Below are positions 14,105-36,616 of a stretch of 64,000 nt of DNA, piece by piece. Within the stretch, counting starts at the first letter, position 1, and each line of letters starts with the position of its first letter. This DNA is from Dipteris shenzhenensis (taxonomy: Eukaryota). The notes beneath the pieces were generated by a model that was given only the letters and a program-made list of their open reading frames with translations, did no database searches and was not told the DNA's origin. The translations under genes were made by a program, and so were the position numbers. Location: assembly GCA_047967505.1 (NCBI GenBank), contig CM106538.1; one strand, given 5' to 3'.

Positions 14105-16509
14105 AAAATGTTGGCCAAGTCTAGACTCTTTAGAATCTTTTTAAAGGAGCAAGGTACCCTTTACAACAGGGGCTCCTACACCTTCCAAGTTCTATAATGG
14201 AGCTGAAGGGTTGAAATCTGAAATGCTTTCGTCTGTGCAGCATGATAAAGTCTGTATTGCGGGTTCAAGCACATTCGAAGGATGAAGAAGCCGCCTTGAC
14301 TGACATTGAGGATTCTCTTAGGAGTAAGGAATCTGTAAGAATCTTGATTGGTTGACTGAAATGAAAGCTTGTTGAGACTTAGAAATGATGGTGAGCTCTT
14401 CAACGAGCACGTTTTCCCACCTAGTTTGGTCGTAGAAAGGGCGCTTCTTGTATGACTTCTAGGTTCATGGGTTGTGGCGTTCAAGACCAAGTTCTTTATA
14501 CTACCAATAGTTGCTGCCAATTTAGCCGGAGTTCTAAATTGACAGTGCTAATTGCTTAGTTGGTCATATATACAGGGTGCTTGTATGACTTTCAGGTTCA
14601 TGGGCTGTGGCCATTAAATATATATGGGGACCAAATTCACTTGCGCTGCTGACTTACCCAACTTCAACGTAATTGGGTTCCAAATCGATAGTTGAGGCCC
14701 ACCTCATTCGGTCATAGAGTGCCTATGCATTTTTCGCTAAGGATGCTCATTTGGGAGAGACTAAAATGAAACTATATAACTCTTCACGATCAGATGTAGC
14801 TTGAATGAAGAGGAATCTGGACTACTTTTTTATTAACCTTCAATGCTAGCCTTTGTCACGGTTGACCCTACCCTTCACCTCTAGAGTGTTGATAGATACT
14901 CCCTATGAATATCATAGTATAAATGGATGCTCAAGTATGTGTCGGCGTGTGGATATGTATTGTGTGAGAGCATATGTTTATATCATTGGCTACACCCACA
15001 ACCTAGGTCAATAGTGTAGGGCTCAATGGATAAAGTGGCTTTCCCATACCACGATGAGACCCATTGTGGGTATACCAAGGATCCCAAAGTGACTCCAATT
15101 GGTTAGAAATCGCCCATGTCCCTAGGATTCTAAAACCCACTATAGAGTTTAAAGTTTCAAATGCAGGTAGGAATTAAACATCAATTTAGAACAGAGTGTT
15201 TGCAAATTTTGCAACTAGTATTGGTGAATTTGGTCCCCACATGCCCAAACTCATCTTTTGAAAACATAACACATTGCAATTTCAATCTCATGAGAATCAC
15301 ACTTAGGTTGAAAACCATAATCTCCATCACGCATAGCAAGGACTAGCTATTATGAAATCCCAAGGGATGTCATTAGTGTCCATGAACAATGATATACTCA
15401 CAAAATGTGATGATAGTATTGGGTGTTGTGGCTTGTAGGTTTATGTGATGGGCCTTGGACCTTGAGATTAGATGTGGCTTAGATGTAGTACCTACCCCTA
15501 CGGTTGTCATTGATCAATTCTGCAATGCTCAAGTTGCAAAATTGCAGCTTTGACTAAAGGGTGATGACTTGATACGAGGATTCTACGGTGGGAGCTAAGT
15601 TTGATGCTCATCCCTATGGTGTTCTAAGCAAGGTGATTTCTTAGTACAGAGTGACTTAGGTAGTTGTAGTATACTAATGATGTTAAGCGCTTCTTATAGA
15701 CAAGTTGTACTAAACATGTTAAGTTCTCGTTGTGTATGCACTTAGGCGGCCTTATTAATGCCTTCTTTCCTCTCTTATGATTGTTGTGTATCATCTTAAA
15801 TCCATGTAGCCTCTATTACATATTGGTCTTATGGTCTCAATTCATCATTCATCTTGTAACTTTGAAAACTATTCAAAAACCCATCATCTTTCCCTTTATA
15901 GCACTAATTTTGTCGGAGATGACAGAGAATGAGAGCAAGGCTTATGCGGTTTTATCATATGCGAGTAGGACTTATGTGATGAGAGCACGACTCATGGGTT
16001 TTATCTTAATGCCCCAAGGAGTGGCAACGCTTGCTTTGTTCGAAACACGGTAGTAAGAGAGACACACAAGATGACTAGTAAAATCTGATAATGTAAAAAA
16101 AAACTATATATATGCATCTTCCCAATTATTAGGGTTACAGTTAGATTTTGTTCCATCAATTTTCTATGGATAGGTACAATTTATGGTGTCCTTGAATTTA
16201 CTCCCTCTTAACTTGCACCTGATAAAAGGGTAATTAATAAAGATTTTCATATTTTAACACCATATTAGTAATTTTGGGATCATGTTCAATTGCAACATGA
16301 TTACACAAGGCACCTACAATAACTCACCTTAAATTATTTAGTATTTGATAATGAAAACTTGAAAAACATTCCAATGCATAATGAAAACCTCAAATTTAAC
16401 ACTGCAATGCCATACAAGAGAGTTAACTTTGTTGAATTATCAACACATTTATATAATAGTTGGTGTCAAGATATAAATGCCATTTGTTTAAAGCAATGAC
16501 CAAAGTAAA

Positions 16510-16980
16510 GCTAAGCTTGTTATCATCATCATGACATTGTCAATGGTAATTGTTATGCATTCAACCAATAGGAAGATAATGAGCTGAAGCTAAGCTTGTT
16601 ATAATCATCATGGCATTGTCAATGGTAATTGTTACTCATTCAACCAATAGGAAGTCAATGAGCTGAACTACTCAATACAAGCCCTTATTTAAAGAAAACA
16701 AAACCTTAAGACCATTGAGTATTAGCTCAAGGCCAACTTCCAAGAATTGAACACGTGAAATTGCTCAACCAATAGGAAGACAATGAGCTGAACTACTCAA
16801 TACAAGCCCTTATTTAAAGAAAACAAAACCTTAAGAACATAGAGTATTAGCTCAGGGCCAACTTCCAAGAATTGAACACATGAAAGTGCTCAACCAATAG
16901 GAAGACAATGAGCTGAACTACTCAATACAAGCCATTATTTAAACAAAACAAAACCTTAAGACCATTGAGTATTAGCTCAA
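16510..16980. repeat. compound tandem repeat: 79 bp x2, then 125 bp x~2.5
   Basis: Units start at 16510 and 16589, then 16668, 16793 and 16918; they share TCAACCAATAGGAAGACAATGAGCTGAA; array abuts the transposase stop codon. Confidence 0.9.
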
Positions 16981-19480
16981 TCTGCACTCTTGTCGTTTAC
17001 TTGATCAACCCCTTCTAGGCTTGCTTCTGCTTTCTCACGCACGGTAGGTGGAATTTTGATCTTCTTGGGCTTCTTCACTCCTTTCGGTGTCCAACTCCAT
17101 ACTATTGAGTTTGCTTGCTCCCAACGTGTAGGATCTTTGTCATTGCACATCCAAAATTTCTCCCAACAATTTACATACACTTCTTCCTCGCTTGCATTCT
17201 TCTTATGGGAACATGGTGCCCAATACTGTATCAATACCATGTTGTATTCTTTAGAGGAAGCATTGGATTGAATGTCTGACTTGGCTTCACCCAACCAAAT
17301 TGGATATATATTGTCGCTTGGCCTCACAAGAACAAAGTCACCCTTTTTTACATCTATAAGAGGTTGGAATGCATCTTTTGGCTTGTTACGTTGTGGACCA
17401 TAGTAGTGGTCTTCCAATGCCTTTAAACCCATGAAACCTTCATTTTCGGTGCTGGTGTTATGCTCTGTTGCATGTGTTGTCTTTGGCCAAAAGCCTGAAC
17501 ATATATCTTGAATTTGCATAGTTGATGCAGATTCTGACAATGCATTGATCATGTTTTCCCAATACTGTATCACTGGTGTAATGTATATAGAATAAGGATC
17601 CAGTGAGCCTTTGTCAATGCGATGCTTGTTCCAATATTTTATATAGTCCTTTATGCCATTCACCACTTGAGCACTATCTTTTAAGTACTCACACATTGGA
17701 AGTACTGGTGGTTCCCCAATTGGCAACAAAGATTTTCCAAGAGTATCTATTTTCCACAACTCTATGCCACCACCCTTTGGCATCCAATGATCTTGCGTGT
17801 GATTCATTTTGTAATGCATTACTGAAATGTCATCTTGCATGAAAAAACGAAAATGCAATGCTTTGAATGTCCAATAAGTTTATCCTGGCCTTCACATAAG
17901 TAACCATCAATAAACCCTTTAAAGTCTAGAACCTATCCTAAAAGGGGCAAGCCTTGAGCTTGTGCACTTGTTGAAGGTTTTCATAAGATGTGCTAGAGTG
18001 AGAGAATGACTTGTCCTCAACTGCTTTGAAAAACGACTAAACAATGCATCAATATCTTCATGGGTATGACCAACCATTAAGAAACCCATCTCTATCATTA
18101 AGAAAACCTGCCTAGCCACCAACAAAGATAGGCATGCAAAAACATATATGTTTTTGTTCTTCGATCTACAATTGTCTAATTGCAACAAGAGGCAAGGTGG
18201 AAGAGTTTTGAAAGATGTAGTGGATGTGTTATATGTGCTTGCAAGCACTTGTTGAGCATAAGGATTTGACTTCCCATCCATTGATAGATGAATATCCATG
18301 GCTGTCCTTGAGGTCACACAATTTAGGAGCTGGCTTGAAGTATTTAAAGAGCTATGTACAAGATCACCATACTGATACTTATCTTCTCTTTCCAAGTCAC
18401 GAAAACACAATGCTAATGATCCCACGGTAAAGTTTGGGTGTGCGGGCCAAAGACCAAGTGAAAAATGTCCATATGCTTCTTGTCCATGTCCATGTGTTAG
18501 CATTCCAGTCAATGATATTGGCAACTTATCGATATCTTTTGCTCTAACTTTGAGCCTCGGTATGGCTATCTTCTATTGATCCATCTTATCATGTATGATG
18601 CATAAGACTTGTTGAGGGTCCTTCTCTGATTTGTAACGCCATGAATAATATACATGCCGACAACTCATTTGTTGTTTCATATGCCCCATCCTCTCCACAA
18701 AGAGCTTTTCACATTCTGTTGGTATCTTAGTAGCACCCAATTTCGACTTGATTGCACTACAAAGGCTACGTGACTTTGAGAATGTGCTTGTATGAGAAAC
18801 CGAGACATGCTTGAAGTCTGTGTTCCAAATTCTATTGAAGGTCAACTTTGGAACCTCCTTGTACCCTAGCTCTTTCATGGTCAGATTGATCTCATGCATT
18901 ATGTCCACTTGTTTGTACATATCTAGAATGACAAGTTGTGTTTCTCTCATGCCATCTATTGTTGTTTGAGCTTTATGCGGCATCCTTTCAGCATTGTTAT
19001 TCACAAAGTCACATAATACAGCTCTTGCCATCCCCACATGATCCCACCCTTTTCTAATTTTGTTTCCATGCATGGCATTTGTGCATCCAACATTATGTTG
19101 CTCCTTGTACCTATAGTATGAAGTTTTAGAAATTGCGTACAATTCATACCATGTCGTGCAACATATTTCCCTCCCATCAAAGCTAAACAGGTCATGTGAC
19201 ACAACACCTTTTGAATCAATCCGCATAGCATAAGTGAAGCTATTGAAGATATAGGTCATTCGATTCTCCAAGTTCATGCTCCAAAATTCCACTCTCATTT
19301 GCAAAACCAAATTACGATCTGCAATCTAGCAACACTTCAACTCACAACAACCTATAAGTGCCACATCTTCATACGTGCACTTCTTCATCAGATGGCATTC
19401 AATTTCCTTTCTAGGCTTGCGATTGACCATATGATATTTTCTTTTTGTGCGAAGTGGTTTGACATTTAGGCGCTAATTGG
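16977..19480 (-). pseudogene. Sola-like (DUF7869-type) DDD transposase, disrupted
   Basis: CCELKCC N-terminal cluster, CIIHDKMDQ, LLLQLDNCRSKNKN and FLMVGHTHEDIDALFS catalytic-type motifs; ORFs 18573-19310, 17919-18524 and 16977-17858. Confidence 0.78.
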
Positions 19481-19492
19481 GAGCCAAAAGTA

Positions 19493-20765
19493 CAAGATTG
19501 GTTTGAAAGCCGACCTTTGTCTCTCGTGCCCGATGGAGGATGAAAGTTCAATATCGGTTTTAAAACCGATCTGAACTGTCATGCATGGTGGATGATAAAA
19601 GTTCAAGATCGGTTTAAAAACCGATCTTAATCTCTCATGCCTCATGAAGGATGGAGGTTTAATGGTGGTTTCAAAATTGATCTTTGTCTTCCATTCCCAA
19701 TTTAGGATGAGAGTTTAAGATCGGTTTTAAAACCAATCTTGATCTCTTATGCATGATGAATGACAAGAGTTCAAGATCGGTTTCAAAACCAATCTTCGTC
19801 TCGAACTTCATCCCTCATGCCCGATCGAGGATGAAAGTTTAAGATAATTTCCAAGACCAATCTTGGTCTCTCTTGTCCTATGGATCATGAGCTATCAAGA
19901 ACGGTTTTGAAACTAATCTGGTATAGAATGCCTGTTAAGGATTAAAGTAGAAGATCACATTTAAAATAGATCGTGGTCACTCACGCACAATGGAGGTTGA
20001 ATTTTTAAAACCGATCTGGATCTTGATCTCTCATGGCCGGATCGATTTCAAAACCGATCTCAAACTTGACCATGTCATATGAAGGATGAAACCAAGATTG
20101 GTTTTAAAACGATCATGTTCTCTCTTCATGGAAAAGATTAAACTTTTGTTAAAACCGATCTTGGACTCTTAGGTGAATTGGAGGATCATTGATCAAGATC
20201 GATTTTGAAACCGGTCTTCATGTCAGAAGCCGAATGGAGGAAGAGAATTTGAGTTTGTTTTTAAAACTGATCATGGTCTCCATCATATCATGTGAAGGTT
20301 CAAGCCAAGATTAGTTTTAAAACCGATCTTCGTCTCTCAACCATGGTAAAGTTTAACATCAATCATGGAGTCTTATGCGTGGTGGAGGATAAAAGTTCAA
20401 GGTCGCATGAAGGATGAAAGTTCGAGATCGGTTTTAAAACCGATCTTAATCTCTCATGCTAGATGAAGGATGAAAATTTGAGATCAGTTTTAAAACCGAT
20501 CATGGCCTTCAACATGTCATGTGGAGGATGGAACCAACATTAATTTTAAGGACGATCTTTGTTTCCATCATGGTGGAAAACTTCAAGATCGATTTTAAAA
20601 CCGATCTTGGACTCTCATGCATGTCGTGGACGGTGAAAGTTTGAGATCGATTTTAAAACTGATATGGTATCCATCACGTCTTGTGGAGAATGAATCTTAA
20701 AACCGATCTACATCTCTCATCATGGGACAGTTTAACATTGGTTTTGAAACTCGTCTTGGACTCTC
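19493..20765. repeat. array of ~22 degenerate ~56-bp units, each with a 24-bp palindromic core
   Basis: AAGATCGGTTTTAAAACCGATCTT variants at about 19493, 19549, 19604, 19660, 19716, 19772 ... 20423, 20479, 20584, 20642 and 20733. Confidence 0.92.
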
Positions 20766-20779
20766 ATGCGTGGTGTGGA

Positions 20780-21937
20780 CTAAAATATATTTAAATGTTT
20801 TATTATGGTGTTCTAAAGATATTTTAATTAAAGTGTACTAAAATACATAGTACAAACGTAATAAAATAACTTACATTAATACTTTGAACCTTAAAATTTA
20901 TCCAGAACCTAAACAAAAAATGATTAATTTTAACTAACTCCCTAAATAACGTTTTGTTTAAATTCCCTATCTACTATTTTATTTTAATTCCCTAGCTAAT
21001 GTTTTATTTATCCTAACAAACATTTAATTTAAATTCCCTAACAAATGTTTTATTTATCCCTAAATAAAATATAATTACATGCTTTATTATGGGTTTTTAA
21101 ATATATCTGACATATTTCTCCTTATCCAAAAATATTTTTTTGATTAAAGTGTACTAAGATACATAGTCTAAACTATTCCAAATATACTTTTATTTATTCC
21201 AAATATGTTTTACTAAATAAAATATTAATAGAATACAAAAACATATTTTAAATCTCTTCCATATTATATCCATTATTAATTAAATTATTTTATATTCATA
21301 CATTTAATTAAAATATTTTAAAAATATATATATTACTTAAGTTTTAATAAATAAACCCTATAGAATATAAAATATGTATATGGAATAAACATAATATATT
21401 AAATAGTAGGCAACTCTTTCACTAAATCCCTAACTAACATTCTAACGAACTTCCTAACTAATGTTTGATTTAAATTAACTACTAATATGACTTATTAGGC
21501 TAAAGTTTAAACCTTAAAATTTATCCTAATCCTAGGCTAAAAATGATTAATTTTAACTAACTCCCTAACTAACGTTTTATTTAAATTTCCTAACTCCCTA
21601 ACTAATGTTTAAATGTTAATATGACTAATTCATGTTTAAACCTAAACTAACGTTTAATCCTAAACCTAAAATAACGTTTAATCCTAAACTTGAACTAACA
21701 TTTAACCTTAATATGACTAACTAACGTTTAACCATAAACTAACATTTAAACCTAAACTAATTTGTCTAATTAGCCTACTAACTATCCTAAACCTAAATTA
21801 AACCTAAACTAACTAACCTTAAATAATTAGCCTAGACTAAGTCACTAACGTTTAACCTTAACTAATTAGCCTAAACTAATTTAACTAATTAGCCTAGACT
21901 AAGTCACTAGCGTAAACCTAAACCTAAAGGCCTAACC
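20780..21937. repeat. very AT-rich low-complexity tract grading into CCTAAA/CTAAC repeats
   Basis: Repeated AAACCTAAACTAAC and CCCTAACTAAC motifs at 21420-21937. Confidence 0.7.
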
Positions 21938-22336
21938 TATTGGAGAGGCTTACTGTGAGCTATAGCGCCACCATCACCATCGCCCTCACGCAGTCTGACT
22001 CTGCCATCACCATCGCCCTCACGATCAGAGTCTGCACACAGACCGAGTCCTCCATCACCATCACCCTCACGCTCTCTCGGAGTCTGCATCAAGTACTGTC
22101 TCGAGGTCTACCTCGCCCTCACGCTCTCTCTCGGAGTCCTACCCACACTTCTCAATGCCATCTCCCTCGGTGTCTGCATGAACGTCTTCATCATGCACAG
22201 GGACATGTTGGACGATCTTCATCTATTGCTTGTTCTTGGACTTTGTTGGAGTTGTTGTCTGCATCAAGATTTTGGAGGTCGTCTGCAACACTCGCTCCAT
22301 CGCCATGAGATAGTGTCATCTTGGAGAGGAGGTGGG

Positions 22337-22659
22337 CTCTCTCTCTCACACTCTCTCACAGCCGCTCTCTCTCTCACGCTCTCTTAGAGTCTTTCACTCT
22401 CTCTCACACTCTGTCTCTCTCTCTCTCTCACGGTCTCTCTCTCTCTCTCTCGTTGACGCTCTCTCTCTCTCTCACGGTCGCTCTCAAGCTCTCTCTCTCT
22501 CACGGTCGCTCTCTCTTTCTCTCACGATCGCTCTATCTCTCTCTTTCACGCTCTCTGTCTCTCTCTCTCATGCTCTCTCTCTCTCTGACACACACTCATG
22601 CTATCTCTCTCTCTCTCATGGTCACTCTCAAGCTCTCTCTCTCTCTGATATCACTCACG

Positions 22660-22737
<78 letters not shown>

Positions 22738-22890
22738 CTCTCTCTCTCTCTCTCTCTCTCATGCTCTCTCTCTCTCTCGGTCTCTCTGATATCACTCACG
22801 CTCTCTCTCTCAAACTGTCTCTTTCAAGTCTCTCTCTCTCTCTCACTGTCAAAGTCCTCTCTTTCACCCATGCCCTCTCTCTCTCTCTCT
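22337..22890. repeat. compound (CT)n/(CA)n microsatellite
   Basis: Long interrupted CT runs with CA runs near 22680-22733. Confidence 0.95.
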
Positions 22891-23258
22891 CAGGATACTA
22901 GATATAGCAGTATGAGCTCTTTTAACCCTCAAGAATTCAAACAAATTTTGAAAATTTCCCTTAAGACTAATTCCAAAATTTACACCAAGATCGGTTTTAA
23001 AACCGATCTCGATGGAGGATAGGAAAAAAAAGTTAAGTAATTGGTCCATAATTCAAATTTTGAAAAAATTCGAATTAGTTTTTTGAAATTCCTCGTCTTA
23101 AAGCTTTTTGTACAAGCTAAAGTTTCAAATATTATGTCACGTAAATTTGGGGATGCTAGCATTTATATTGTACCTAAGTTTGGGGTTACATATTTGTCTA
23201 ATTTACTTCACTAGAATGGAATCTTTCGTTAAGCTTAACTTCGAATAGAGGATGGGGC

Positions 23259-23368
23259 TAAAGGTGAAGGTGAAACCCTTTGCCCTTCATCCCCTTAACC
23301 AAGATCGGTTTTGAAACCGATCTTTGGTTGAGGGAACGAAGGGCAAAGGGTTTTACCCTCATCCTTTA
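23259..23368. repeat. ~110-nt imperfect hairpin centred on the 24-bp palindrome
   Basis: AAACCCTTTGCCCTTC...CCAAGATCGGTTTTGAAACCGATCTTTGG...GAAGGGCAAAGGGTTT. Confidence 0.85.
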
Positions 23369-23660
23369 ATTCTTTATCTTGGAATTTCGTACAAGCACAG
23401 TCATATAGATATAATATGGTGATTGATCAAGGCATCTTTTCCTCAATATTTCATTGATTTGTCATGGTCAGGACACCCATGCATGCACGTGAAAAACTTG
23501 TAGTGAAAGGGCTTGCATACATGCTACCATAACTTCAAATTACTGGCTTAAGGCTTTGCTCTTAATCTTCCCATCAAAGATTGGTTTTAAAACTGGTCTT
23601 GGTTGGGGGATCAAAGGGAGGAAAGTGAAAGCATTTGTCCTCCATTGAAATCAATCTTCT

Positions 23661-23790
23661 TCGGATTTGAAGGACCATGACTTTGCTCTTATTCTTCCCA
23701 TCAAAGATCGGTTTTAAAACCGGTCTTGGTTTCAAAACTGATGTTTGATAGGAAGATTAAGAGAAAAGCCATATTGTTTTTCAAATCCAA
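23661..23790. repeat. ~130-nt imperfect hairpin containing the palindrome
   Basis: GGATTTGAA...CTCTTATTCTTCCCATCAAAGATCGGTTTT pairs with AAAACTGATGTTTGATAGGAAGATTAAGAG...TTCAAATCC. Confidence 0.8.
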
Positions 23791-24124
23791 GGTCACCCCT
23801 AAATTTAAGTTTTCATTCACCGAGATCGGTTTTAAAACCGGTCTTCATTAGTGGATGAAAGACCTAGCCTTTTTCTATTATCCTTCCCTACCTTCCTTTC
23901 TTCTGTTATCTCTCCATCCCCAAGAAGATCAATGGCAAGGCCTTTTAGGTCACCAAAGTTCGGTTTTAAAACTGACCTTGGAATTGAGCTCAAATGCTAA
24001 TGTTCAAATTTGGCATTCAAATTTGATACGTGCTTACAATCTTAGTCATTCTAAAGGTGGTAGTGTTTGGGATTTTATTTGTGTTTTGTTTTTGTTGATT
24101 TGACATTGTGTTGTGAAATAGGAC

Positions 24125-26783
24125 ATGGCATGTAAGAGTACCGAATTGTCGACTAAGAAGTCAAAAGGAAGGAGAGTAAGTGGAAAGACTAGTGATAGTA
24201 GTGCAACCAACAAGAAGAGCAAGCCCTCCCACAATGTTTTTAATGGTTGTAATGATCCACAGTGGGGATTGTATGTGGACACATATAGTGAAAGTGGAAA
24301 ACCTTTCAAGAAGGTCCACTTGTTTGTTAAAAGAAATGATTCTTCGGAATTCGAAGATGTGGGGCATGTAACATGAGTAAATAAGGGTATAGTGGGTCAA
24401 GAAGGTGATGAGGCCATCTTCATCCAAGTCAGCTTAAAAGTCTACTACCTATCACCAGCACATTATGATGAATCAAAACATAAGAAGAACAAGAAAGATT
24501 CCATGCAGAAAATGGGTTGGAATATTGTGATCGATGAAAACACAACTCCGGACATGATTGTTGACAATATCAACATAATTGGTCAGATGATTAAAATGCC
24601 AAGAAAAATAGGTGAGGGTAATGTAAAACAAGCAAATGCTGAGGAGAAACATGAAAGAGCCTTGGTGACTATCATTGAAGCAGAGCCATTGAGGATAGCA
24701 CCATCAGAAGAGGACATTATTGGTTGGAAGGAGAAAGGAGAGGGGATACACAATTTTCAACAGTACTATCCTTTTGGTCTAGATGGGTTCTCAATCCTTG
24801 TTTTAAATTGTACACAAGCACCAACTAATTACGTGTATAGGCCCCTAGTGGAACAATACGTTTGCAATTTGGTCAAAGAATTCTGCATGAATCCAAGAGA
24901 TTGCTTCACAAAAGCAGATGTGATGCCTTATGATCCAAACACTAATTTGCCACTAACCAATGTGACGTTTAAAGACATACACACCTATGCTTATTGGGTG
25001 CTATCAAGCCAGCACTCAATTGAAGCAGCTAAAATTTTGCAAATGAGTGATTTTCTAGTAGTTAAAGAAATCAAAGGTGTTTATGCAAGGAGAACCGCAA
25101 GAATAGTATTGAATTGTCCAAAGCATATGTGTCGGCTAATTTCGCGAAAGGCGAATGAGGAACTTCAAAAGAACATGAAGGATGCACCTTATGCAGAGCA
25201 ACTGAAGCAGCTACGAAGTTAGTGGGTTGCATTTGGGAGACCAGAGAAGCCTAAAGTTGGAGCCACCAAAGGACACCAATCACGAAAAGAATGGGATGTA
25301 AGCATTTCTTCTAAAATTTTGTTTTTAAAAGTTGCTATCTTTGTGATATTATTTATTAACTATACAAGATTGGTTTTAAAACCGATCTCAAGAGAAGTAT
25401 GTGATTCCATGTTGTTTTTGCTTTCTCTTCCTTGTATAAGCTTAGTTTTAAAACCGATCTTGAGAGCAGTATGTCATATATGCTATATTGATGTTGTTAT
25501 ATGCAGGATTTTATTGATACTGTGCATTTGTCTTTTGGAAAGAGTTTCAACCAAAAAGATGTTCATGTGATTATATGTCCAAATGATCTCTTCCAAGGAT
25601 GGATGGACATCATGCATAGATATGTTAAGGGAAATTTGCCAAATCAAAAGGGTCAAGTATCGGTCCAAGAGATGAGCACAACACAAATTCCTACTTTTGG
25701 TAAAGTGGGAGAAATCAATCAAGCAAAGGGCACTAAAAGACTAGGATTGACAATGTTTCGCTGTTTGTTGGGCATGGAGGACTCTATGATATCCACTTTG
25801 CAGCATGAAATCTTAGAGAAAAATGTGATTTTATCTAGTTCCAAGGCATCAAGCATCAAAACCATGGATGAAAGGTGTTGGGAAATGAAAAGTGACAAAG
25901 TCCTTCACCTAGAGATTGCTACTTTCCTCAAGGCAAAGTCACAAGACAATGTAGGTAAGAGTTGGGAGGAGATGAAACTATTTTATGACATCACTGATGA
26001 TAGGTATCATACTATATTTAGATATTACAACGAGTGGTTTAAAGACTGCTTAAATCCCAGCAGCAAGATGACAAATGCAATGCTACCTCAGACTGCTTTG
26101 ACATTCCTTACTTGGATTCATAACTCTAAATTTGGTACCTCCAGTCAAAGTGTGAAAGAAATCCATGGAAGACCATAAATGTGGGAGGCAAGTTAGAGGG
26201 ACTAGAGAGTGTGAACAAATACACAGAAGAACAACGAATTGGAGTAGTTGTTCTTGATACACAAGAATCGCTAGAGCAAGAGTGGAACGTGTCTTTCTTT
26301 GAAAGATTCTTTGAAATGCTAAATGAAATAACACATGAAGCACCTAAATACGGATTACTTGCCTTTGTTTCAGTAAAAAATGTATCACATTTGTTGGAAG
26401 CAATCAAAGGCTTACAATTGCAATTCAAGTATCAAGTGGGTGCGTATGACACAGAGTCTTCCCAAGATTCTTTGTCTAAAGATGCTCTTGGAGATTTGGT
26501 TGTTTCGAGTATGGTTTACAAAGAATCTTGTGATGCAATAATAAATCAATTAAAGAAGAATTCGACCAAGGCATCTGTATGTTTTGGATTATATGACCAG
26601 GATTCCAAGAACGGTGAAGATACTGATGAGGAGGAATCCCCCAAGCATTTGCAAAATGCAAACTTTATCTCTTCTTTCATTGAGTACTTCTATCGGCCAG
26701 ATCAATGTGTTATTGATGCCTTCACAGAGGGAATTGCCACCTTAGAGTCATTGAAGAAGAAGGACACTTGCATTTGTAGCTAG
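24125..26783 (+). pseudogene. cargo gene: ParB/Srx-like domain plus degenerate beta-class N4/N6 DNA methyltransferase-like domain
   Basis: Same frame from 24125 to 25297 with stops at 24374 and 25220; GT-AG intron 25298-25506; frameshift near 26178. Motifs YVYRPLVEQYVCNLV and YWVLSSQHSIEAAK (ParB-like); IGVVVLDTQE and FIEYFYRPDQCVIDAFTEG (MTase-like). Confidence 0.55.
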
Positions 26784-27638
26784 GAATCAAGATGAGATTG
26801 AAGTGAATGGCAGGTGCTCAGATCTAATCTCCGCATCTAAAGAGTTAACAGTATGGGCAAACCTAGACTCTGAGGATGAAACTATAGAAAACCAAGAGGA
26901 ATCGCATAGTGCAGACATGCAGACTTCAACTCAGTAACAATTGGCAAGACCGACGGATGTACAAGAAAGACCAATAAACCCTTGAGGATATTGACGAAAT
27001 GGCCAAGCAAATATTCGCATCCAAAAAAGCAGGTCAAAAGTCATAAATCTTCAAGGATTTCAGAGGCATTTATGTAAATATCTTTGAAACTGATAATGCT
27101 TCCAAAATTGAATTGTTCATGTAGATTTTGTAATTGCTATATTATTAGGTCAATAAGAACGATTATTGAACTTAGTCTGTCATCCTTTAACAACAATGAC
27201 AGGATATGATCAGTTTTAATTCCGATCTTGGCTTTCAGCATGAAAGGCTAAGAACGGTTTAAAAACCGATCTTATGAACTCCCACACAAAGAGCATGAGA
27301 GTAAGATGAAAGACTAATATCGATTTTATAATCGATCTTAACATCTCCCACTTGGTGGACTATGAGATGTTGAGATCGGTTGTAAAGCCAATCTGTTGTT
27401 CGGAAATATAACATACAATTCACTTTTGATTTGTGTATGGAAATGTAATGTCAGATTTGCATTTGAATTATGATCAATGCTTTTTTAACTTAGTAAATAC
27501 AAATTGTATCCTCTAATGTGATGAGACTCTTATGAGAATTGGAGATATAATCTAATACACCAAAATACTTAGGTTACCATTGTCAATGTAAATGAGAGAA
27601 TATAATGTAGATTTAAGCTCACATTTTTAAATGTAAGC

Positions 27639-29461
27639 ATGGAAAAAATTCATTGAATCTTGACCTCACACCTTGATACTTTTGCATGCCATGATATAAA
27701 TGGAAATCCCCTGCATATAGAAATACCACACAGGGAAAAATCAGATGAGTCAATGGAACATATTCAATGTTCTCCATCTATGACAACAAAGAAATTACTT
27801 GTACTTGACCTGAATGGAATTTTGCTCCTCAAGTCCAATAAACCTTCTGATAAACACAAAAGCATACAAATTTATAAGACAACATGGATTGTGCTTCGAA
27901 ATGGATGTGTTCAATTCTTGGATAGATTGTTTGAGCACTTTCATGTGTGCCTATGGTCAACTGTGATAATCAAGAATGTGAATTACATGGTTCATTTGAT
28001 GGAGAAGCTTGCAGCGAAATGATTTCCGTTCTACAAAATTATGGGGCAAGATCAATGCTACAAATCACTTACAGAGATATTAAAGAGACCGGACAAGCCA
28101 GGCGTTCAATGCATGTTTAAGCCCTTGCTTGCCATTTGGACAAATGATAAAGAGTTAAATCCTAGTAACACCTTGCTTATTGATGATTGTCCGTTTAAGG
28201 GCTGTGTAAACCCAGAAGAAAATGGTATATATCCAGATACTTTTGACATAGGTGAGACTGATGACATATTGAATGTTGAACTTCCCCCTTATCTCCTCCG
28301 ATTGAGAGATGTATCAAATATAAGAAATATTAGCAAGCTTGACCGTTATGGAAATGACCCAATACAATACAAATCATCATCAATATATGTATTTCAAAGA
28401 AGTGATTTTGGAAGGGGAGTTCACTACAAAGTACATAAAACACTTCTTGGAGGAATCTGCTCCAAGCCAAAAGATTAGTTTGACCAACTCAAGTCATTTT
28501 GAGATCGTCCAACATAGTAATCGAATGAGAGATGCTTGTGAGCCAGATAAGGAACAATCATCAAAATCCCAAGAACAAGAGCTCAAAACATGCCCAGCTA
28601 CCTTGGATTCTTCTAAACTAGATCTGTTGAAGAGGATAAAGCAGCTAAATTCTTTGAATGAGATGCAAGCTTGTTTGTATGCCTTGAAATTGGGTTACGA
28701 TCAATCATATATTACTGGAACTTCTGCCAAAGTGTATATAACAAGACTACAAGCTTCACTTGCATTAAACATGCAATAAATCTTTGAGAATGGTAATTAC
28801 TCATATTATTTGCTTATTTGTGATGCATCATTTTTGTAAATTTCCTTCTCATTATTTATGTGTAACTATTTAATAACTCATTATTTTTTTCTTTTACACA
28901 CAAGGTTCAAAGACATGCTGAAAGAATTGAAGAATAAAGTAATTCTTCACTTTGATTCTAAGTTGAATGGCGTGTGGGATCAAGATCTACCAAACCAATT
29001 GCTTCTATATTCAAGCTCTCAATGGTGTTGAATTTAAAGTGAAGACATCATCGATTGTAGGAGAAAGTTATGGCTTGCTTGTACATATGAATGTAAAAGC
29101 AAAGAAAGACCTTTTGATATTCAATGGCCCAAAGTATGATTACTAGAGTTGGATTACTCTTTGCTCTTACCTTCCAAGGTTTAGGACCTATGGCCTCCTC
29201 GAAGATTCAAAAGTTACACCAAAGGAGGACACACAATACATCGTAGGAGATGTGTTGTATGGTAATGTAGCTGGATACATCAATAGCTCTATTCATTGTA
29301 AGGGTAGAATAAATGTTATGTATGTATATGACTCTAGAGTACCACCTTGGATCGAAGACAAATGGGATGTTTTACCTACTGATATGTTAGGATTTATTGT
29401 TGTCTACTCTCTTAGAGATATCCATGCAGGAGAGGAGTTGTTTTGTGAGTATGATTTTTAA
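27639..29461 (+). pseudogene. cargo gene: FCP1/SCP (NIF) HAD phosphatase domain followed by a SET domain
   Basis: KKLLVLDLNGILL, LRNGCVQFLDRLFEHFHVCLWS, NTLLIDDCPFKGCVNPEEN (FCP1); probable intron ~28793-28904; VKTSSIVGESYGL, GNVAGYINSS, LRDIHAGEELFCEYDF (SET); several stops and frameshifts. Confidence 0.75.
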
Positions 29462-30640
29462 GATGTAAAACCTTTGTCATGATGTTGGTGTACTCCCATT
29501 TTAATTTAATATGTTGGTGCTTAATACCATCTTTTTCTTGAGAAAATTCACATTGTTTGGATTCACAATGATGGCAATTATATGAGCATGTTTGGAATAT
29601 TTCAATGGAATGATATAATATTTAGCCATATAAAAACTCAAAATCATATTCAAATACATGATTGTTTCTATTAATTTCCTCCACATCAAACCAAACACCT
29701 TTTATATTTAAAGATAATGATATAGTGTTGTCTATTAATATTTCAATGGAATGATATAATATTTAGCCAAATTAAAACTCAAATAGATCTTCGAATATAT
29801 GAATTTATCTAAAAATTTCCTTCCAAAACAACCAAAACGCCTTTGATTTTTGGGATTTAAAAAAAAATGGGAGTAGGGATTTTCCCAAAATTACTAATAT
29901 AGTGTTTTTTTCTAGATAGAATGTTGCATCATAGCAACAACAATGATAAAGAACAAAGGGTGCTTTATAGAAGTTATTTTTGGATTTTTCTAAAATAAAA
30001 GGTTGCATCATGGCAACAAAATTGATAAAGAAGACAAAAGTGATAAAGAAGGAAAATTAGAATTATTGCATATATTGCATAAACTACAACAAAAAAAATG
30101 TACAAAGTATACAATTAAGCCTTCACACTTCCTCATCTTAACTGTAGCTAGTCTTTGCAAATACCAAGTTCATAATAGAAACTATTTGATTTGTAGAGGG
30201 AAAGTGGGTGGGTGGAGATATCAACAATTGATGAAGCTTAAATTACTTAAATGAAACAACACAATAAATTGTGGATAATAAACAATGAGGCTAGGAATTG
30301 TATAGGTTGAGCAATAATAAATCCTTGTATGGATTTAAAGATGATTATTGGTCTTATCCTCTTGGATTTGCATTTGATTGAGAAAACGCAGTGGTTGATT
30401 TCTTTGGAAGTTGGTCAAATTAGAATGAATATCATACTAGAATATGATTATGCATCCATGAATGGTTTGAAGACTTGGTTGAACTCGTCATATAACACTA
30501 ATATTAGCACAAAAGTACACTATCGATTGTTTACAAACATTGCTTTGAAACATGATAGTTGCAAAATATATCATGTCTACTTGAAAATCTTCTTATATAT
30601 AAAAAAGACTATTCTTGACTTTAGATACAAAGTGACGTAA

Positions 30641-31252: not shown

Positions 31253-31941
31253 TGTTAGATATGCTCAATGCCCCACCCTCTTGGTAACCACTAGTGGTCC
31301 AAGATGCTCAAGTTGTAAGGCCCCCATATGAGGAGAAGCCATGTGTGAGCTTGGGACACTGGATGGATCGCATGTCAGATGAGACCGTTGAAGGTAGAAA
31401 GGAAATCTATGTGAGTCTAGCCTATGGGCTAGGCAGGGTAGGTAAGCTAGTAGCACAACGAGGCACATTGTCTTGATTGTGTGGGAGCCCCTTACTCTTG
31501 CTGGGGCTTGGGGGCCAGCTGGCCGAGGTCCCAGGGGGCCAACGAGTCCCTTGGTGGGGGTTCAGGAGCGAGAGCCTGAGGCAACAATATAAGGAATATT
31601 CCTAAATATTCCATGGATGACTAGTTGGTTCCACTGACTAGGTTGACTAGTCGGTTCCACCGACTACGTTGATCCGACTATTGCCCTCATGGCTATAAAG
31701 AGGCGACCTTCCTAGTCCATTGTACCAGATCAGATCTTCCAGCAGAGCTCTTCTAGTTAGTAGCTCTTCACCTAGTATCTGTTTAGATCACCATCTAAGC
31801 TCCACTGTGGGAGCGCACAAGTGGACGGAGCCATCATCTGTACTACATTAGTATTGAAGGAAAATTTTGTTCATCTCTAGTTTGCTGTGTACTCTCTATT
31901 CTTTGTTCAGTTTTTGTTCCACCGCGCCGTGTAATTTAACA
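31253..31941 (+). repeat. 5' LTR of copia B (689 bp)
   Basis: TG...CA termini followed by the PBS; its start is repeated at 35872-35892. Confidence 0.9.
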
Positions 31942-34900
31942 TGGTATCAGAGCCCAAGTGGCTCTAAGGATCAAAGAGTAGAAGAGAGGCGAGGGCTTCA
32001 ATAGCATACGGAGTGATGGCAATAGGAAGCGGTTCGAGTTCAGCAGTTGCAGCTGCATCAACTGCACCAACAACCCAAGAGTTGAAGATTCGGCCACCAG
32101 CCTTCCAATATGTTCCAGGCCATAGTTGCCTTAGATGTAGGCTAAATTAAGGTCAAAACACTATTAGTAGTACTTGTAACCAAGGCACATAGAGCATCTA
32201 TGTTCCTACGTTTCCAAGCTCGTAGAAGGTCGGCATTAGGAGGTATCGTACTCCCCAGATTTGTTGGGTCAAGGGTTCCTTGTGGTTCTAGGTCAGTCCC
32301 CAGTACTGTCTCCAAAAGCTCATATGAATCCAGAATAGCAGTAATTTTAAACTTCCACAGAGTGTAGTTTGTACCATTAGTCAGTATGAGACGCGGAATC
32401 AAACAAGGATCCAGAACCAAGAGAATCAGTTGGCAGTTGAGAAGTTTAATGAAGGAGAGACAGTGGAGGCATTCATAACCCGAATCAAAAATCTGCATGA
32501 CCAGATGGCTGGTGCTGGGATACAAAAGACTAGCGAAGAGCTAGCTCGGTGGTGTCTTCGGATATGTCCACCAAGGTTTGATGGATTGGTAATAGTGTTG
32601 AACACTCAGGTGAGTCCCCAACCATTGTCATTTGAGGAGTTTTGTGCTTTACTTATGGAGGAGGAATTGAGGCTTAAAGCTCAAGATGGAGGCGGCAATG
32701 GGGATGCTGCGTTCTCTGCCACTGCGAAAGGCAAAGGTGGTTCCTCCACCAAAGGTGAGTCCTCTACTAGTGGTGACAAAAGGAAGAAGGGTGGCAAGAA
32801 GAAGTTTCAGGGAGAATGCTTCTACTGAAAGAAGAAGGGCCATGTGATTGCAGATTGTCAGGTCAAGAAAGCAGATGAAAAGAATGGTACCCTGAAGAAG
32901 ATAGATAAGGGAAAAGAGATAGCTAACACAGTGAAAGCAGAGTTGGATCTATTTTTAGCCATTGAGGAAGAGTGTTCCTCAGTTCAAGAAGCTTCAACCA
33001 CTGATTCATGGGTGTTAATATGTAGTGCCTCCCATCACATGACTTGCAAGAAGGGTCTATATTGTTCCATGCATCCTCTACAGGAACCCATCACCATGAT
33101 GGTTGGAAATAACACAAAATGCCATGTTGAGGGTACAGGTATGGTTTCATTTGTTTCTATAAATGAAGATGTTAAGAAACTATCTAATGTGCTGTATGTT
33201 CCACAAATCAAGAGAAATTTGCTATCAGTTGCTTCCATAACTGACCTTGACCATGAGGTGAGGTTCAACAAGACAAGAGAAAAAATTCTAGATAGTGCAG
33301 GTAATCTTGTTGGCACAAGAGTAAGGAGGAGCAACCTGTCTGAACTAAGTGCTCTTACAACCTCCGCTGGAGTGGGCACAAGCAGACTTTGGCATGAAAT
33401 ATTCAACCACATTGGATTTGCAGTGCTAAAGGAGATGCAGAAGCAAGGTATGGTTGCTCACTTACCTGCAGTTGCAGAAATCAATGAACCATGTGAAGCT
33501 TGCATGATGGGCAAGCAACAGAGAAAGGCATTCCCACAAGAAAGCAAGAATAGAGCAAATGCTCCTCTAGAGTTGGTGCGTGTTGACTTGTGTAGTAAGA
33601 TGCCTACACAGGCCTTGGGGGGATCTTCCTATTTTTTATTGATTGTCGATGACTATAGTAAGAAGATGTGGGTGTACTTTCTTTGTGAAAAGGCTCAAGA
33701 TTTCGGTAAATTGAAAGAATGGCTATAGCTTGTTGAAAATGAAATAGGGAGAAAAGTGAAGAAAATCAGATCAGATGGTGGTGGTGAGTCTATTTCTATA
33801 GAGTTTGGAGGCTTTTGCAAGAGCAAAGGGATCAAGCGACAAACGACAACATCACATAGCCTCAACAAAATTCGGTTGTTGAATGCCGAATGCGGACCAC
33901 CATGGAGATGGGGAGGTGTATGTTGAAAGGTGCTGGACTGCCAAACCACTTTTGGGCTGAGGCTGTCAATACTGCAGTTTACATCCTTAATCGCAGCTAT
34001 ACAAAGGCACTCAAAGGTAAAACACCACATGAGGCTTACAACGGTAAGAAGCCATCTATCTCCCACTTCAGAACGTTTGGGTGTGAATGCTATGCGCATG
34101 TACCAGACAAAGAGAGAAACAAGCTACAACCAAAAAGCACCAAATGTATCTTCTTAGGCTATTGTGATGAGAAGAAAGCCTATAAGTTGTATGACTGATA
34201 GGCAAAGAAGATCTCAGATGCCTATGTCTATTGAGCAGCATGCAAATGGACCAAGGCAGTCTTAGAGAATCGAGGAGCAAAGGAGGGCTTCTGCTCACAT
34301 AATCAATATGGCCTTGATGGCTGAGATTATTGCAAAAGTAAAGGAGCCTGCAAGTTTGGAGGAAGCACTTGCAGACCGAGATTGGAAAAACACTATGCAA
34401 GTAGAATATGACAGCATCATGAAGAATGAAACTTGGGAACTAGTAGATCGACCACCTAACAAAAGGGTTATTGGCACCAAGTGGGTTTGGAAGGTAAAGT
34501 ACAAGGTCGATGGGACTTTGGAAAAGTACAAAGCTAGTTGGTTGCACAAGGATTTTTGCAGATTGAAGGGTTTGATTTTCAGGAATCTTTCACTCCGACT
34601 ACCAGAATGACCACTATTCAAACAGTACTATTGGTGGCTACTCATAAAATGTGGCCAATTTATCAAATGGATGTTAAATCAACATTCTTGAATGGTGACC
34701 TCAAGGAGGAGGTGTACATGGCTCAGCCACCTAGGTTTGAGGCTCCCCATTCTGAGAACAAGGTATGTAAGCTGAAGAAGGCTCTGTACACGGGCTGAAA
34801 TAGGCCCCAAGAGCATGGTACCAACGAATAGACAAATTCTTTCATAAATTAAACTTCAAAAGATGTGCCTCAGATGCTAACTTGTATGTGTATAGGAAAG

Positions 34901-35892
34901 GTGGAAAATCTGCTATTATTGTTCTATATGTGGATGATCTCCTTATTACAAGTGACTATGAAGACATGATCCAATAGACTAGAAAGCCGTTGAGCACAGA
35001 GTTTGAGATGACAGACTTAGGCTTGATGCACTACTGTTTGGGGATTGAAGTCTAGCAAGAGCCAGGCAAGATCTTCATCTTTCAACAAAAAATATGCAAG
35101 GAAGATCTTGAAGGCATTTGGTATGTCCAAGTGCAAGGAGATAGCTACACCTATGGAGGTAAATGCGAGGCTATCTATGGAGGATGCCTCACCACCAACA
35201 AACATCGAGAGGTAAAGAAGTTGGTTGGCAGTCTCATCTATCTGTGCAACACTAGACCAGACATCAGTTTTGCTATTGGTGTTTTGAGTAGGTTCTCCAA
35301 TGAGCCTCGCGAGAATCATTGGAATGCAGGGATGCGGGTGCTTAGGTACTTATGGTATGGGCACTTCCTTGGCTGGTCATTGTGACTCAGATTGGGCTGG
35401 AGATTTTGATTCTAGGAAATCAGTTTCTGGATATTTTTTCTCTTTAGGTTCAAGTATCTTCTCTTGGATCAGTAAGAAACAACCAATAGTGGCATTGTCT
35501 TCTACTGAGGCTAGCATGTTTTGCTGCTTGTGAAGCAGTGTGGCTGAGGAGGATCTTATGGCACATGGGAGTGCAAGAGGATGAGGCAACTATGCTAAGG
35601 TGCAACAATCAAAGTTGCATGGCCATTGCTAGAAGTCTAGTGTTTCATGCGTGCACAAAACATACTCATGCGCGCACAAAACATATAGAGATTCAATATC
35701 ACTATGTGCATGATTTAACGGGATAGTGGAATTGGTCTACTATCCAATAGAGCAAAATGGAGCAGATATCTTCACCAAGGCACTCGGGAAGGATCAGCTT
35801 CAGGGTCATCTTCAAAGACTTGGCATTGGGTCGAGAAGGTAATTCACCTACGGGTGGACATTGAGGAGGGGTGTTAGATATGCTCAATGCCC
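31253..35892 (+). mobile_element. Ty1/copia element B, degenerate; 3' LTR interrupted after 21 bp
   Basis: 5' LTR 31253-31941, PBS TGGTATCAGAGC 31942-31953, gag/INT/RT/RH fragments (LWHEIFNH, VDLCSK, LYVDDL, LSSTEA), PPT TTGAGGAGGGG, then TGTTAGATATGCTCAATGCCC at 35872. Confidence 0.93.
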
Positions 35893-36616
35893 TGTAAGAA
35901 AACAATACGTCTGTGCTCAACAGATAATAGGATCTCGTATGCAAGAGAGAAAAGAAGATAGTATGGAGAATCAAAAATTTGATTACTGTAAAATTGATAC
36001 AATAGATGGCGCTGCCTCCCAGCCATGCGCTCCTGTGTGAGAAGCTTCGATGGCATGCTGGAAACAGTAGAGGACGGAGGCTGGATGCTAAGGAATCAGG
36101 GTTGTTGTAGCCAGTGATGATAATGGGCTTCACGAGCTTGCTCTTATATAGCCACCACTCATAGTCGGTTAGACCCAATTGGGTGACTGACCCAATCCGC
36201 CCAAAATGGCCGACTGGGAGTGAAATAGGCCACCGACCACACGATAGAACTGTGGCACAAAATAGAGCAACTGACCTATGGTTACCGTTCGGCCCACAGC
36301 CATCCGGGATCATTTGGGGCTCCAAACAAGCCTCTCAACCTAAGAGTGGGGCTACCCCAGGAAATGCTCTGTCTACCCTTAGTGCGGTCAGTCATGGGAT
36401 GCCTTCCCACACTTGCATGTAGCCTACTTAGCAGTGTGCCAACTCTATCTGAAGCCGTCCAGCCATCAGGACACACATGGCCCCCATTTGGTGTCCAAAC
36501 TAGGACCTACTGGATAACCGAGCTACTCAAATGCCTTCTCCTCATATGGGGGGCTTACAAGTAGAGTTAGCTGGTTCTCGCGTACTCACACAAGAGTGGA
36601 GCATTGATATCTAACA
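35893..36616 (-). repeat. 3' LTR of copia C
   Basis: TGTAAGAAAA...TATCTAACA, colinear with 4591-5323. Confidence 0.93.

Follow-up and report, generated by a model that had tools for sequence, protein, structure and literature searches.

Clustered palindromes as putative lineage-specific dyad sites in the non-coding parts of a decayed DNA transposon of Dipteris shenzhenensis

A 24-bp palindrome, AAGATCGGTTTTAAAACCGATCTT, recurs 34 to 36 times within what is probably a decayed DNA transposon of Dipteris shenzhenensis, and we give somewhat better than even chances, on sequence comparison, to the reading that its copies are clustered, lineage-specific dyad sites for a DNA-binding protein encoded by the element, most likely the DUF7869-type transposase. 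The scan covered the window, i.e., the whole stretch of 64,000 nucleotides analysed, with first-order Markov shuffles (n = 50) as background, and returned 25 sites at up to 5 mismatches (shuffle mean 0), 34 at up to 7 of 24 (0.26) and 36 at up to 8 (1.72), while 18 matches had at most 3 mismatches, against none in 100 shuffles. These counts agree with the “about 35” copies of an earlier note on this DNA, and the confinement to non-coding parts that it described is borne out: all sites at up to 8 mismatches fall within 19494–27395, with none in the remaining 56 kb of the window and none in the transposase-like frame (17013–19445) or the exons of the accessory gene. Six control chunks of 7 kb from this window contained no palindrome that recurred at least three times. 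The sites are laid out as follows:

19494..20757, no strand assigned, palindrome array of 22 units with a 56-bp period, directly adjoining the transposase frame at its truncated 5' end
20780..22900, no strand assigned, palindrome-free block that splits the palindrome-bearing region
22987..23979, no strand assigned, six single palindromes starting at 22987, 23301, 23577, 23704, 23822 and 23956, from 1140 to 170 bp upstream of the ATG of the accessory gene, ORF2
25366–25389 and 25438–25461, two palindromes in the ORF2 intron, within a 72-bp duplication
27206..27395, no strand assigned, four palindromes starting at 27206, 27250, 27316 and 27372, between the ORF2 and NIF exons

The palindrome is the conserved unit among the window copies. 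In the array, where TRF reports a period of 56 at 19487–19796, positions of the palindrome carry 1.23 bits of information on average vs 0.45 for those of the flanks, and in the dispersed copies (n = 12) the means are 1.53 vs 0.32; the corresponding pairwise identities are 0.70 vs 0.37 and 0.80 vs 0.29, a contrast inflated by the picking of sites by palindrome match. The variants among copies represent one-sided decay and not compensatory changes, and 19 of 68 CpG positions have decayed to TG or CA. The flanks of the four palindromes at 27206..27395 resemble units of the 19.5-kb array. Insertion of MITEs or foldback elements was considered for the 12 dispersed copies and rejected, as these have no flanking direct repeats and several of their flanks extend the palindrome. 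The block that interrupts the series, with AT-rich repeats of CTAAAC/CCTAAA-like units at 20.8–21.93 kb and a CT microsatellite at 22337–22844, probably arose later, by insertion or expansion.

The sequence that surrounds the palindromes is probably a decayed DNA transposon of 13.7 kb (16256–29906), as suggested by a transposase pseudogene and a pair of candidate terminal inverted repeats:

16256..16279, plus strand, candidate left terminal inverted repeat AACACCATATTAGTAATTTTGGGA, with TTTT before it, at the element end that lies 3' of the transposase gene
16508..16980, no strand assigned, tandem repeats of 79 bp (×2) and 125 bp (×2.7) found by TRF directly after the transposase stop codon
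17013..19445, minus strand, DUF7869-type transposase pseudogene with six in-frame stops, without the ~240 N-terminal residues present in relatives of ~1055 aa
29883..29906, minus strand, candidate right terminal inverted repeat, with TTTT after it on the plus strand

The two repeats, 24 bp long and identical at 23 of 24 positions, are the only such pair in the window, and the pair rests on one copy of the element. The first 10 nt of the left repeat match the inward-read 3' end of a related element (locus L001), and its beginning, AACACC, recurs at ends or junctions of L001, L002, L007 and L010. Sola transposons produce a 4-bp target duplication, with which the TTTT flanks at both candidate ends are compatible in size, in DNA that is T-rich. 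The tandem repeats at 16508..16980 contain no AAGATCGGTTTTAAAACCGATCTT site at up to 9 mismatches. The transposase frame matches Pfam PF25273 at 17919–18572 on the minus strand (E 1.3e-37, 129.7 bits vs a cut-off of 26) and is 50.6% identical by tblastn to residues 238–1051 of P0004. The missing N-terminus, which would include the DNA-binding part of this transposase, was found nowhere in the window. PF25273 is matched by all 17 aligned transposase relatives; no Pfam match to Transposase_21 or Transposase_24 was found, and neither the transposase nor ORF2 shows a Pfam family of TnpA or VANC (see below) beyond sub-threshold PF03017 in 3 of the 17 relatives (best E 6.6e-4, 19.9 bits vs a cut-off of 21). 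The window copy of the transposon is dead, given the truncated transposase with its stops, the two stops and frame change of ORF2 and the CpG decay in the palindromes. An end-recognition role is unlikely for this copy, since none of its palindromes comes within 2.5 kb of either candidate end.

The palindromes were also compared with 80 related transposase loci, most of them short and mostly coding, for which reason an absence of palindromes from these is weakly informative. The window palindrome is absent from all 80, and other palindromes, of 20–26 bp, are clustered beside the transposase gene in related loci. Four of the six close loci examined have their own arrays 0.1–1.3 kb upstream of the transposase ATG; none was seen at L006, which has only 148 nt upstream, or at L010. 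The four are:

L001, palindrome ATTTGGCCATATGGCCAAAT, about 8 sites
L004, palindrome AAGGCTCAAACTTGGGTTTGAGCCTT, 4 sites
L002, palindrome AGGCTCAAACTTGAGTTCGAGCCT, 3 sites
L003, palindrome TTGCTCAAACTTAAGATTGAGCAT, 2 sites

An automatic scan for palindromes with at least three copies, which missed L002 and L003, was positive in 9 of the 80 loci vs 1 of 80 shuffled loci. The type of palindrome follows the relatedness of the transposases: L002 and L004 (76–79% identical) share one palindrome, L003 (54–56% identical to these two) has a diverged version of it, and the L001 and window palindromes are unrelated to this type. A further dyad, YTRGYGGCCRCYAR, has 53 occurrences, vs about 0.14 expected, spread over 20 loci, all of which belong to one clade with 100% support in a quick-search transposase tree, with no occurrence in loci outside it. 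On these sequences, no palindrome type is found in more than one transposase clade. When the upstream regions of L002 and L004 are compared by blastn, nothing but the 24-bp palindrome is similar, and the spacers are unalignable, a retention amid diverged surroundings seen in this one pair; sharing within a clade is not in itself proof of selection, as related elements share ancestry. Transposase-coding HSPs, which make up 17% of the bases, contain none of the 33 palindrome sites of 12 non-redundant loci. The motif is, as the earlier note had proposed, a family-specific dyad limited to the non-coding parts of one mobile element, and the co-variation of motif and protein across subfamilies that it had suggested looking for is seen among the related loci.

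The strand opposite the transposase encodes the accessory gene and, after it, the NIF and SET regions:

24122..25297, plus strand, ORF2 exon 1, with in-frame stops at 24374–24376 and 25220–25222
about 24749–25186, plus strand, ParB/Srx-fold domain within ORF2 exon 1
25298..25506, plus strand, ORF2 intron with GT..AG ends
25507..26783, plus strand, ORF2 middle and C-terminal exons, in which the frame changes near 26130–26178, colinear with the fern proteins P0096 and P0083
27657..28755, plus strand, NIF-type (CTD-phosphatase-like) coding region (Pfam PF03031, E 2.2e-7), colinear with residues 716–985 of P0083
29147..29461, plus strand, SET-domain ORF fragment (Pfam PF00856, E 2.8e-5) inside the candidate element

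The intron, to which two motif copies had been assigned, is backed by its GT..AG ends, by the reading frame that its removal restores and by the homologue P0096, which jumps from 25120 or before to 25510. By contrast, the stretch 27207–27395, described as intergenic in the earlier note, is probably an intron or spacer inside a single ORF2–NIF gene, as P0083 is colinear with both parts. The description of ORF2 as ParB-like is sustained at the level of structure: in the AlphaFold model, with pLDDT >95 over residues 125–270, the fold matches are of the ParB/Srx type, and ORF2 so modelled holds a ParB/Srx-type fold, which the sequence-library searches did not detect. A phmmer search returned 43 ORF2 homologues, with the consensus YWI[IL][SD]GQHSIxAAK; the window copy reads SSQHSIEAAK. 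In ParB proteins the CTP box reads GERRxRA. The conserved [S/D]GQHSIxAAK, which has none of its arginines, would occupy the CTP-box position, a placement taken from the strand–helix position in the model and not from residue-level superposition.

Two readings do without an element-encoded binder. Palindromes may act through structure, as cruciforms or as hairpin transcripts that feed small-RNA silencing, or through a host transcription factor captured with promoter modules, and they are indeed promoter-proximal for both divergent genes. Four of five short single units form more stable hairpins than shuffles do (z −2.1 to −4.2), and a near-perfect foldback of 107 nt is centred on the palindrome at 23301 (23259–23368; −42.7 kcal/mol and z −10.9 for the fold of 23255–23370), but the fifth folds no better than shuffles (z −0.67) and no Rfam family matches 16000–30000. 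What is conserved among copies is the sequence itself and not merely its symmetry, as the one-sided decay indicates, and a motif wholly different between transposase clades is unexpected for a conserved host factor; we regard this reading as very unlikely. Nor does much speak for a functionless satellite or MITE-like repeat, spread by slippage and small insertions in a dead element: the array period is regular, the intron pair is a plain duplication and the whole element is decayed, but the dispersed copies keep the palindrome between unrelated flanks, and other lineages repeat the architecture independently with other palindromes, L002 and L004 keeping only the palindrome. This explanation is highly improbable.

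A more serious competitor, although still unlikely, is that ORF2, possibly as one polypeptide with the NIF phosphatase, loads at the palindromes like ParB, KorB or Noc and acts on the chromatin or transcription of the element. Twelve of the 34 palindromes lie upstream of ORF2, within its intron or just after it, and ORF2 has a weak PHROG match to a “ParB-like partition protein” (E 0.072). As in the bacterial ParB–parS, KorB–OB and Noc–NBS systems, multiple palindromic sites adjoin the gene for a protein whose N-terminal fold is ParB/Srx; the window differs in having dozens of 24-bp sites inside a eukaryotic transposon, no CTP-box arginines, no detected HTH and no ParA. Canonical ParB makes its site-specific contacts through an HTH domain that follows the ParB/Srx domain. 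In the later ORF2 exons, Pfam at E up to 10 gave no family and no HTH or other DNA-binding domain, and the search found no relatives of this part; no ParA-like gene was present among the 20 ORFs of at least 70 aa scanned at 16–38 kb. Palindrome clusters of the same style occur in relatives without a ParB-like gene: within up to 10 kb, tblastn detected homologues of ORF2, NIF or SET in 0 of 80 loci, as did an HMM built from the 43 relatives for ORF2, and the transposase is the only gene common to the 80. This is a strong argument only in the distant clade, where the flanks span 10 kb, since L001–L004 are 4–6-kb contigs beyond whose ends an ORF2-like gene may lie. As a general explanation, the parS/ParB reading of the earlier note is not supported by these results, and of the two proteins the transposase is, on sequence, the better supported putative binder.

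The best reading by analogy is that the palindromes work like the target clusters of En/Spm TnpA or VANDAL VANC and not like parS, a working likeness and not homology. In En/Spm (CACTA), TnpA binds dense family-specific motif clusters, and transposases are themselves sequence-specific regulators; as here, a short terminal motif common to the group is combined with dense family-specific motifs in non-coding DNA, and motif and lineage diversify together (bioRxiv 10.64898/2026.08.24.746577). The same account has the element-encoded protein binding the motifs and regulating methylation and transcription of the element, whereas binding here is putative (bioRxiv 10.64898/2026.08.24.746577). The two systems differ in their proteins, which are unrelated, in the site, a 10–12-bp motif in En/Spm vs one long perfect palindrome of 20–26 bp, and in the position of the clusters, restricted to the termini in En/Spm and internal in the window. 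In maize En/Spm the TnpA motifs occur as inverted pairs. As for VANDAL21, a Mutator-like element of Arabidopsis, the VANC21 motifs lie, as here, in introns, in intergenic stretches and upstream of the transposase gene, often as fast-evolving tandem repeats with quick turnover between related elements (PMC5735166). The VANC motif is the 9-bp asymmetric word YAGTATTAY, unlike the present palindrome; VANC has DUF1985 and DUF287 domains, while ORF2 has a ParB/Srx fold, and the transposase superfamilies differ.

If the transposase is the binder, it or an N-terminal DNA-binding form of it would recognise the element in two layers. The terminal motif AACACC… at both ends, common to the family, would be the first. 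The second would consist of the lineage-specific internal palindromes, dense upstream of the transposase gene and present elsewhere in non-coding DNA (the upstream region, intron and spacer of the accessory gene), bound probably by a dimer with one subunit per half-site. Clusters of this kind would let the protein find only the copies of its own lineage, and the bound protein may activate or de-silence the promoters of the element, help to assemble the transposition complex, or both, as En/Spm TnpA of maize and Arabidopsis and VANC of Arabidopsis VANDAL elements do at their own clusters. We infer the binding, the identity and dimeric state of the binder and the effect of binding.

In favour of ORF2 as the binder there is a parallel in Sola1-1_Ec32, a giant DNA transposon of the alga Ectocarpus, for which a ParB-like accessory gene is likewise reported opposite the transposase strand; its product has been suggested to bind the transposon that encodes it, and in this protein the ParB-like part is fused to a DNA methyltransferase (PMC12477816). 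The partners in the window are instead the NIF phosphatase and the SET domain, and no methyltransferase was found in the ORFs scanned. It is conceivable, if a long shot, that a protein with the ParB/Srx fold, either linked to the NIF phosphatase and the SET methyltransferase or accompanying them, forms a self-targeting chromatin module, which would load at the 24-bp palindromes of the element, much like ParB at parS, and rewrite transcription or histone marks across the transposon. Such a module, if real, would be a eukaryotic, transposon-borne counterpart of the bacterial ParB/KorB system, used for anti-silencing.

The 24-bp palindrome AAGATCGGTTTTAAAACCGATCTT, put at about 35 copies in the earlier note, recurs in the window far above chance: a window search returned 18 matches with up to three mismatches and none in 100 shuffles, while our own scan located 25, 34 and 36 sites at no more than 5, 7 and 8 mismatches of 24, the corresponding shuffle means being 0, 0.26 and 1.72. 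The claims that the copies are confined to the element and avoid its coding parts also held, all sites lying within 19494-27395, with none in the remaining 56 kb and 0 within coding sequence. The palindromes, the genes and the candidate ends of the element are arranged as follows.

Features of the palindrome-bearing element in the window
16256-16279 and 29906-29883: 24-bp inverted pair AACAC[C/T]ATATTAGTAATTTTGGGA, TTTT beside both copies
19445-17013, minus strand: transposase, one reading frame with 6 in-frame stops, DUF7869 match
19494-20757: tandem array of 22 palindromes, period 56 bp
22987-23979: 6 isolated palindromes
24122-26783, plus strand: ORF2, broken (2 stops, 1 intron, frame change)
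25298-25506: GT..AG intron of ORF2, with 2 palindromes carried by a 72-bp duplication
27206-27395: 4 palindromes
27657-28755: NIF-phosphatase exons, downstream of ORF2
29147-29461: SET-domain ORF, downstream of the NIF exons

The palindrome variants look like decay; across 34 copies the CpG positions (n = 68) have kept CG in 39 cases and read TG in 12 and CA in 7. The contrast in identity between palindromes and flanks is partly inherent in the procedure by which the sites were chosen. The palindrome core has no match in viral_contigs, and Rfam gave no family across 16000-30000 of the window. A near-perfect foldback of 107 nt, with one palindrome copy at its centre, lies within 23255-23370 (-42.7 kcal/mol, z -10.9, folded as single-stranded DNA), and a further inverted pair is formed by 23549-23593 with 23729-23773. 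The palindrome-bearing region is interrupted by a palindrome-free block (20780-22900), in which AT-rich repeats at 20.8-21.93 kb, whose CTAAAC/CCTAAA-like units look like degenerate telomere repeats, are followed by a CT microsatellite of ~250 units (22337-22844).

The transposase frame matches Pfam DUF7869 (E 1.3e-37) and aligns at ~50% identity with residues ~240-1051 of relatives of ~1055 aa; the N-terminal ~240 residues, or a missing N-terminal exon, were not found anywhere in the window, and the palindrome array starts 49 bp past the end of the transposase homology. Named DUF7869 relatives come from a liverwort and marine animals, and named relatives of the window genes from fern and liverwort. 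The content of the window is that of plant-like eukaryotic DNA. Searches with the transposase gave no PDB sequence relatives, no further Pfam families and nothing useful in PHROGs, and no mention of DUF7869 or PF25273 was found in the open-access full text searched; for one transposase relative, P0025, the Atlas look-alike is an unnamed mollusc cluster (score 0.83). Tandem repeats of 79 and 125 bp (16508-16980), with copies 92-94% identical and without the 24-bp palindrome, begin at the transposase stop.

The inverted pair is the sole one of its kind in the window, and at L001, one of the related transposase loci, the 3′ end of the element, read inward, begins AACACCATAT, its first 10 nt being identical to the window terminus. 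When two other insertions, L013 and L054, are compared, homology stops at ...GTGTTA. On the strength of the unique pair, its TTTT flanks and the matching ends in relatives, the element is read, with moderate confidence, as 16256-29906 (13,651 bp), so that the palindromes would be internal, at least 2.5 kb from both ends; the NIF exons and the SET ORF (27657-29461) lie inside this candidate element. Inverted ends were looked for in the short related loci and not found. An arrangement of two head-to-head elements, each with a subterminal array, was dropped, as the window has one terminal 24-mer pair only. Just 3′ of the transposase stop, a 16-bp palindrome GGTGTT-TATA-AACACC is present in L001 (5162-5189), L007 (2120-2147) and L010 (4021-4048), with TATT in L002 (4421-4448), in loci whose transposases are 37-49% identical between subfamilies (86% for L007 vs L010); its presence there also speaks for the window termini as true ends. 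It looks like a 3′ terminus joined through a 4-bp spacer to a 5′ terminus, and suggests either head-to-tail or circular junctions or a conserved internal site made of two terminal half-sites.

Beyond the element, copia-type retrotransposon domains are found at 32-38 kb of the window, where two fragments of copia-type polyprotein, oriented towards each other, form a large diverged inverted repeat (34393-38095; arms 71-80% complementary). Immediately upstream of the copia-type gag/pol fragments lies a 26-bp tandem repeat (31618-31672, 2.1 copies) with the dyad AGTCGGT-tcc-ACCGACT; the TCGGT/ACCGA core that it has in common with the element palindrome may be due to chance.

For comparison across the family, metagenome contigs were scanned with 17 transposase relatives, and the best 80 of 207 confirmed relatives (571 kb) were used. 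The window palindrome is absent from all 80 loci, its core having no match there at up to 4 mismatches in 20, and four of the six close loci carry arrays of their own, made of 20-26-bp palindromes 0.1-1.3 kb upstream of the transposase ATG; L006 and L010, also among these six, have no array. An automatic scan recovered palindromes with at least three copies in 9/80 loci vs 1/80 shuffled loci, and in none of six control chunks of the window. Two earlier, stricter scans had missed all imperfect arrays, returning L004 in both, L001 in the second, and one L065/L066 dyad.

Co-variation of motif and protein across subfamilies, an idea raised in the earlier note, was observed, in that motif type tracks the transposase tree (obtained by a quick search). 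The palindrome AGGCTCAAACTTGRGTTYGAGCCT is common to L002 and L004, whose transposases are 76-79% identical, and L003, whose transposase is 54-56% identical to theirs, has a diverged form; the palindromes of L001 and of the window are unrelated in sequence. Fifty-three copies of the dyad YTRGYGGCCRCYAR are spread over 20 loci, each of which belongs to one fully supported clade, with 0 occurrences outside it, and L075 and L080 add two more palindrome types. Upstream of the L002 and L004 transposases the palindrome is the sole blastn similarity, and the spacers are unalignable; the palindrome is kept as its surroundings diverge. Among 12 non-redundant loci of the large clade, transposase-coding similarity segments contain 0 of the 33 sites; eight near-identical duplicate contigs had been removed beforehand. 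The three-copy array of L013 and L054 stops ~90-100 bp short of the homology end and is thus subterminal in those loci. In several arrays the palindrome spacings gather near multiples of ~57 bp (56 in the window and L003, 114-120 in L002, 113-117 in L013, 168-173 in L080), while those of L001, L004 and L015 are off such multiples.

The accessory gene ORF2 has 43 relatives at E ≤0.001 in a library of 1.84 billion proteins. An AlphaFold model (43 sequences) reaches pLDDT >95 over residues 125-270, and its top Foldseek matches are all ParB/Srx, namely ParB 6sdk (E 0.063, prob 0.98), KorB, PadC, Noc and sulfiredoxin; a second search agreed on the fold. The “ParB-like” label previously attached to ORF2 therefore holds at the level of the modelled fold. 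Unlike canonical ParB, ORF2 has a conserved motif [S/D]GQHSIxAAK without the CTP-box arginines, and neither an HTH domain nor a ParA gene was detected. Family searches gave no Pfam (24 members) or NCBIfam (43 members) match, a profile search gave no PDB sequence relatives, and a word-index search of longer proteins returned nothing for the N-terminal domain or the middle exon; relatives were absent from genome_contigs and limited to two marginal 64-residue matches in viral_contigs. For the ORF2 relative P0085, the feature-based ESM-Atlas search places fungal DUF3723 clusters closest, at scores of 0.88-0.89 that fall under the 0.9 line of that search and are a lead only; P0085 has no Pfam match to PF12520 at E ≤1, and no paper treating DUF3723 together with ParB was found in the open-access full text searched. 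In fungi, DUF3723 occurs as an accessory gene on Starship elements.

In the fern Adiantum nelumboides, protein P0083 aligns colinearly with both ORF2 and the NIF region. The two therefore probably form a single gene or a conserved module, with an intron or spacer of it holding the four palindromes found at 27.2-27.4 kb. A fern protein combines the ParB/Srx and NIF domains in one chain. The ParB/Srx-NIF-SET set is a possible transposon-borne chromatin or transcription module.

We lean towards reading the pattern as target clusters of an element-encoded, sequence-specific DNA-binding protein, for which the transposase, alone among the genes in being present at every one of these loci, is the most economical predicted binder. 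The loci combine a long dyad, many dense copies, non-coding placement and clade-specific sequence with retention amid neighbour divergence and a separate family-wide terminal motif, a combination typical of such clusters. A live but less likely alternative for the window's own lineage is ORF2 as the binder: a third of the palindrome copies surround it, and the contigs of the close relatives are too short to exclude an ORF2-like gene. Palindrome-bearing relatives occur among the 80 loci, in which neither tblastn (ORF2, NIF or SET) nor a profile of the 43 ORF2 relatives, searched against every six-frame ORF (ORF2), found any relative. The clade-specific conservation of the sequence is a poor fit both to palindromes acting via structure alone or via a host factor, which is improbable, and to a functionless satellite, which is slightly more improbable.

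The closest working parallels to the palindrome clusters are flowering-plant En/Spm TnpA and VANDAL21 VANC21. TnpA is described as binding dense family-specific clusters, motif and lineage co-diversifying (bioRxiv 10.64898/2026.08.24.746577), and VANC21 as binding introns, intergenic and terminal non-coding regions; the tandem repeats built from its motifs, which lie in introns and 5′ of the transposase gene, change rapidly (PMC5735166). Unlike in these systems, the site of the window family is a long perfect palindrome, and the proteins of the window element are unrelated to both TnpA and VANC21. Like the Ectocarpus Sola1 element, in which a ParB-like accessory gene is reported opposite the transposase (PMC12477816), the window element carries such a gene opposite its own.

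Recognition of an element's own lineage via clustered protein-binding motifs is known in few flowering-plant families (En/Spm, VANDAL), and the same logic would here be extended, putatively, to a transposase family that is uncharacterised beyond its Pfam entry, DUF7869. The analysis also brings to notice a ParB/Srx-NIF-SET accessory gene set in a transposon. The unusually long perfect palindromes, varying from clade to clade, may provide natural putative protein/site pairs (the window, L001, L002/L004, L003 and the GTGGCCAC clade) for tests of the co-evolution of target specificity.
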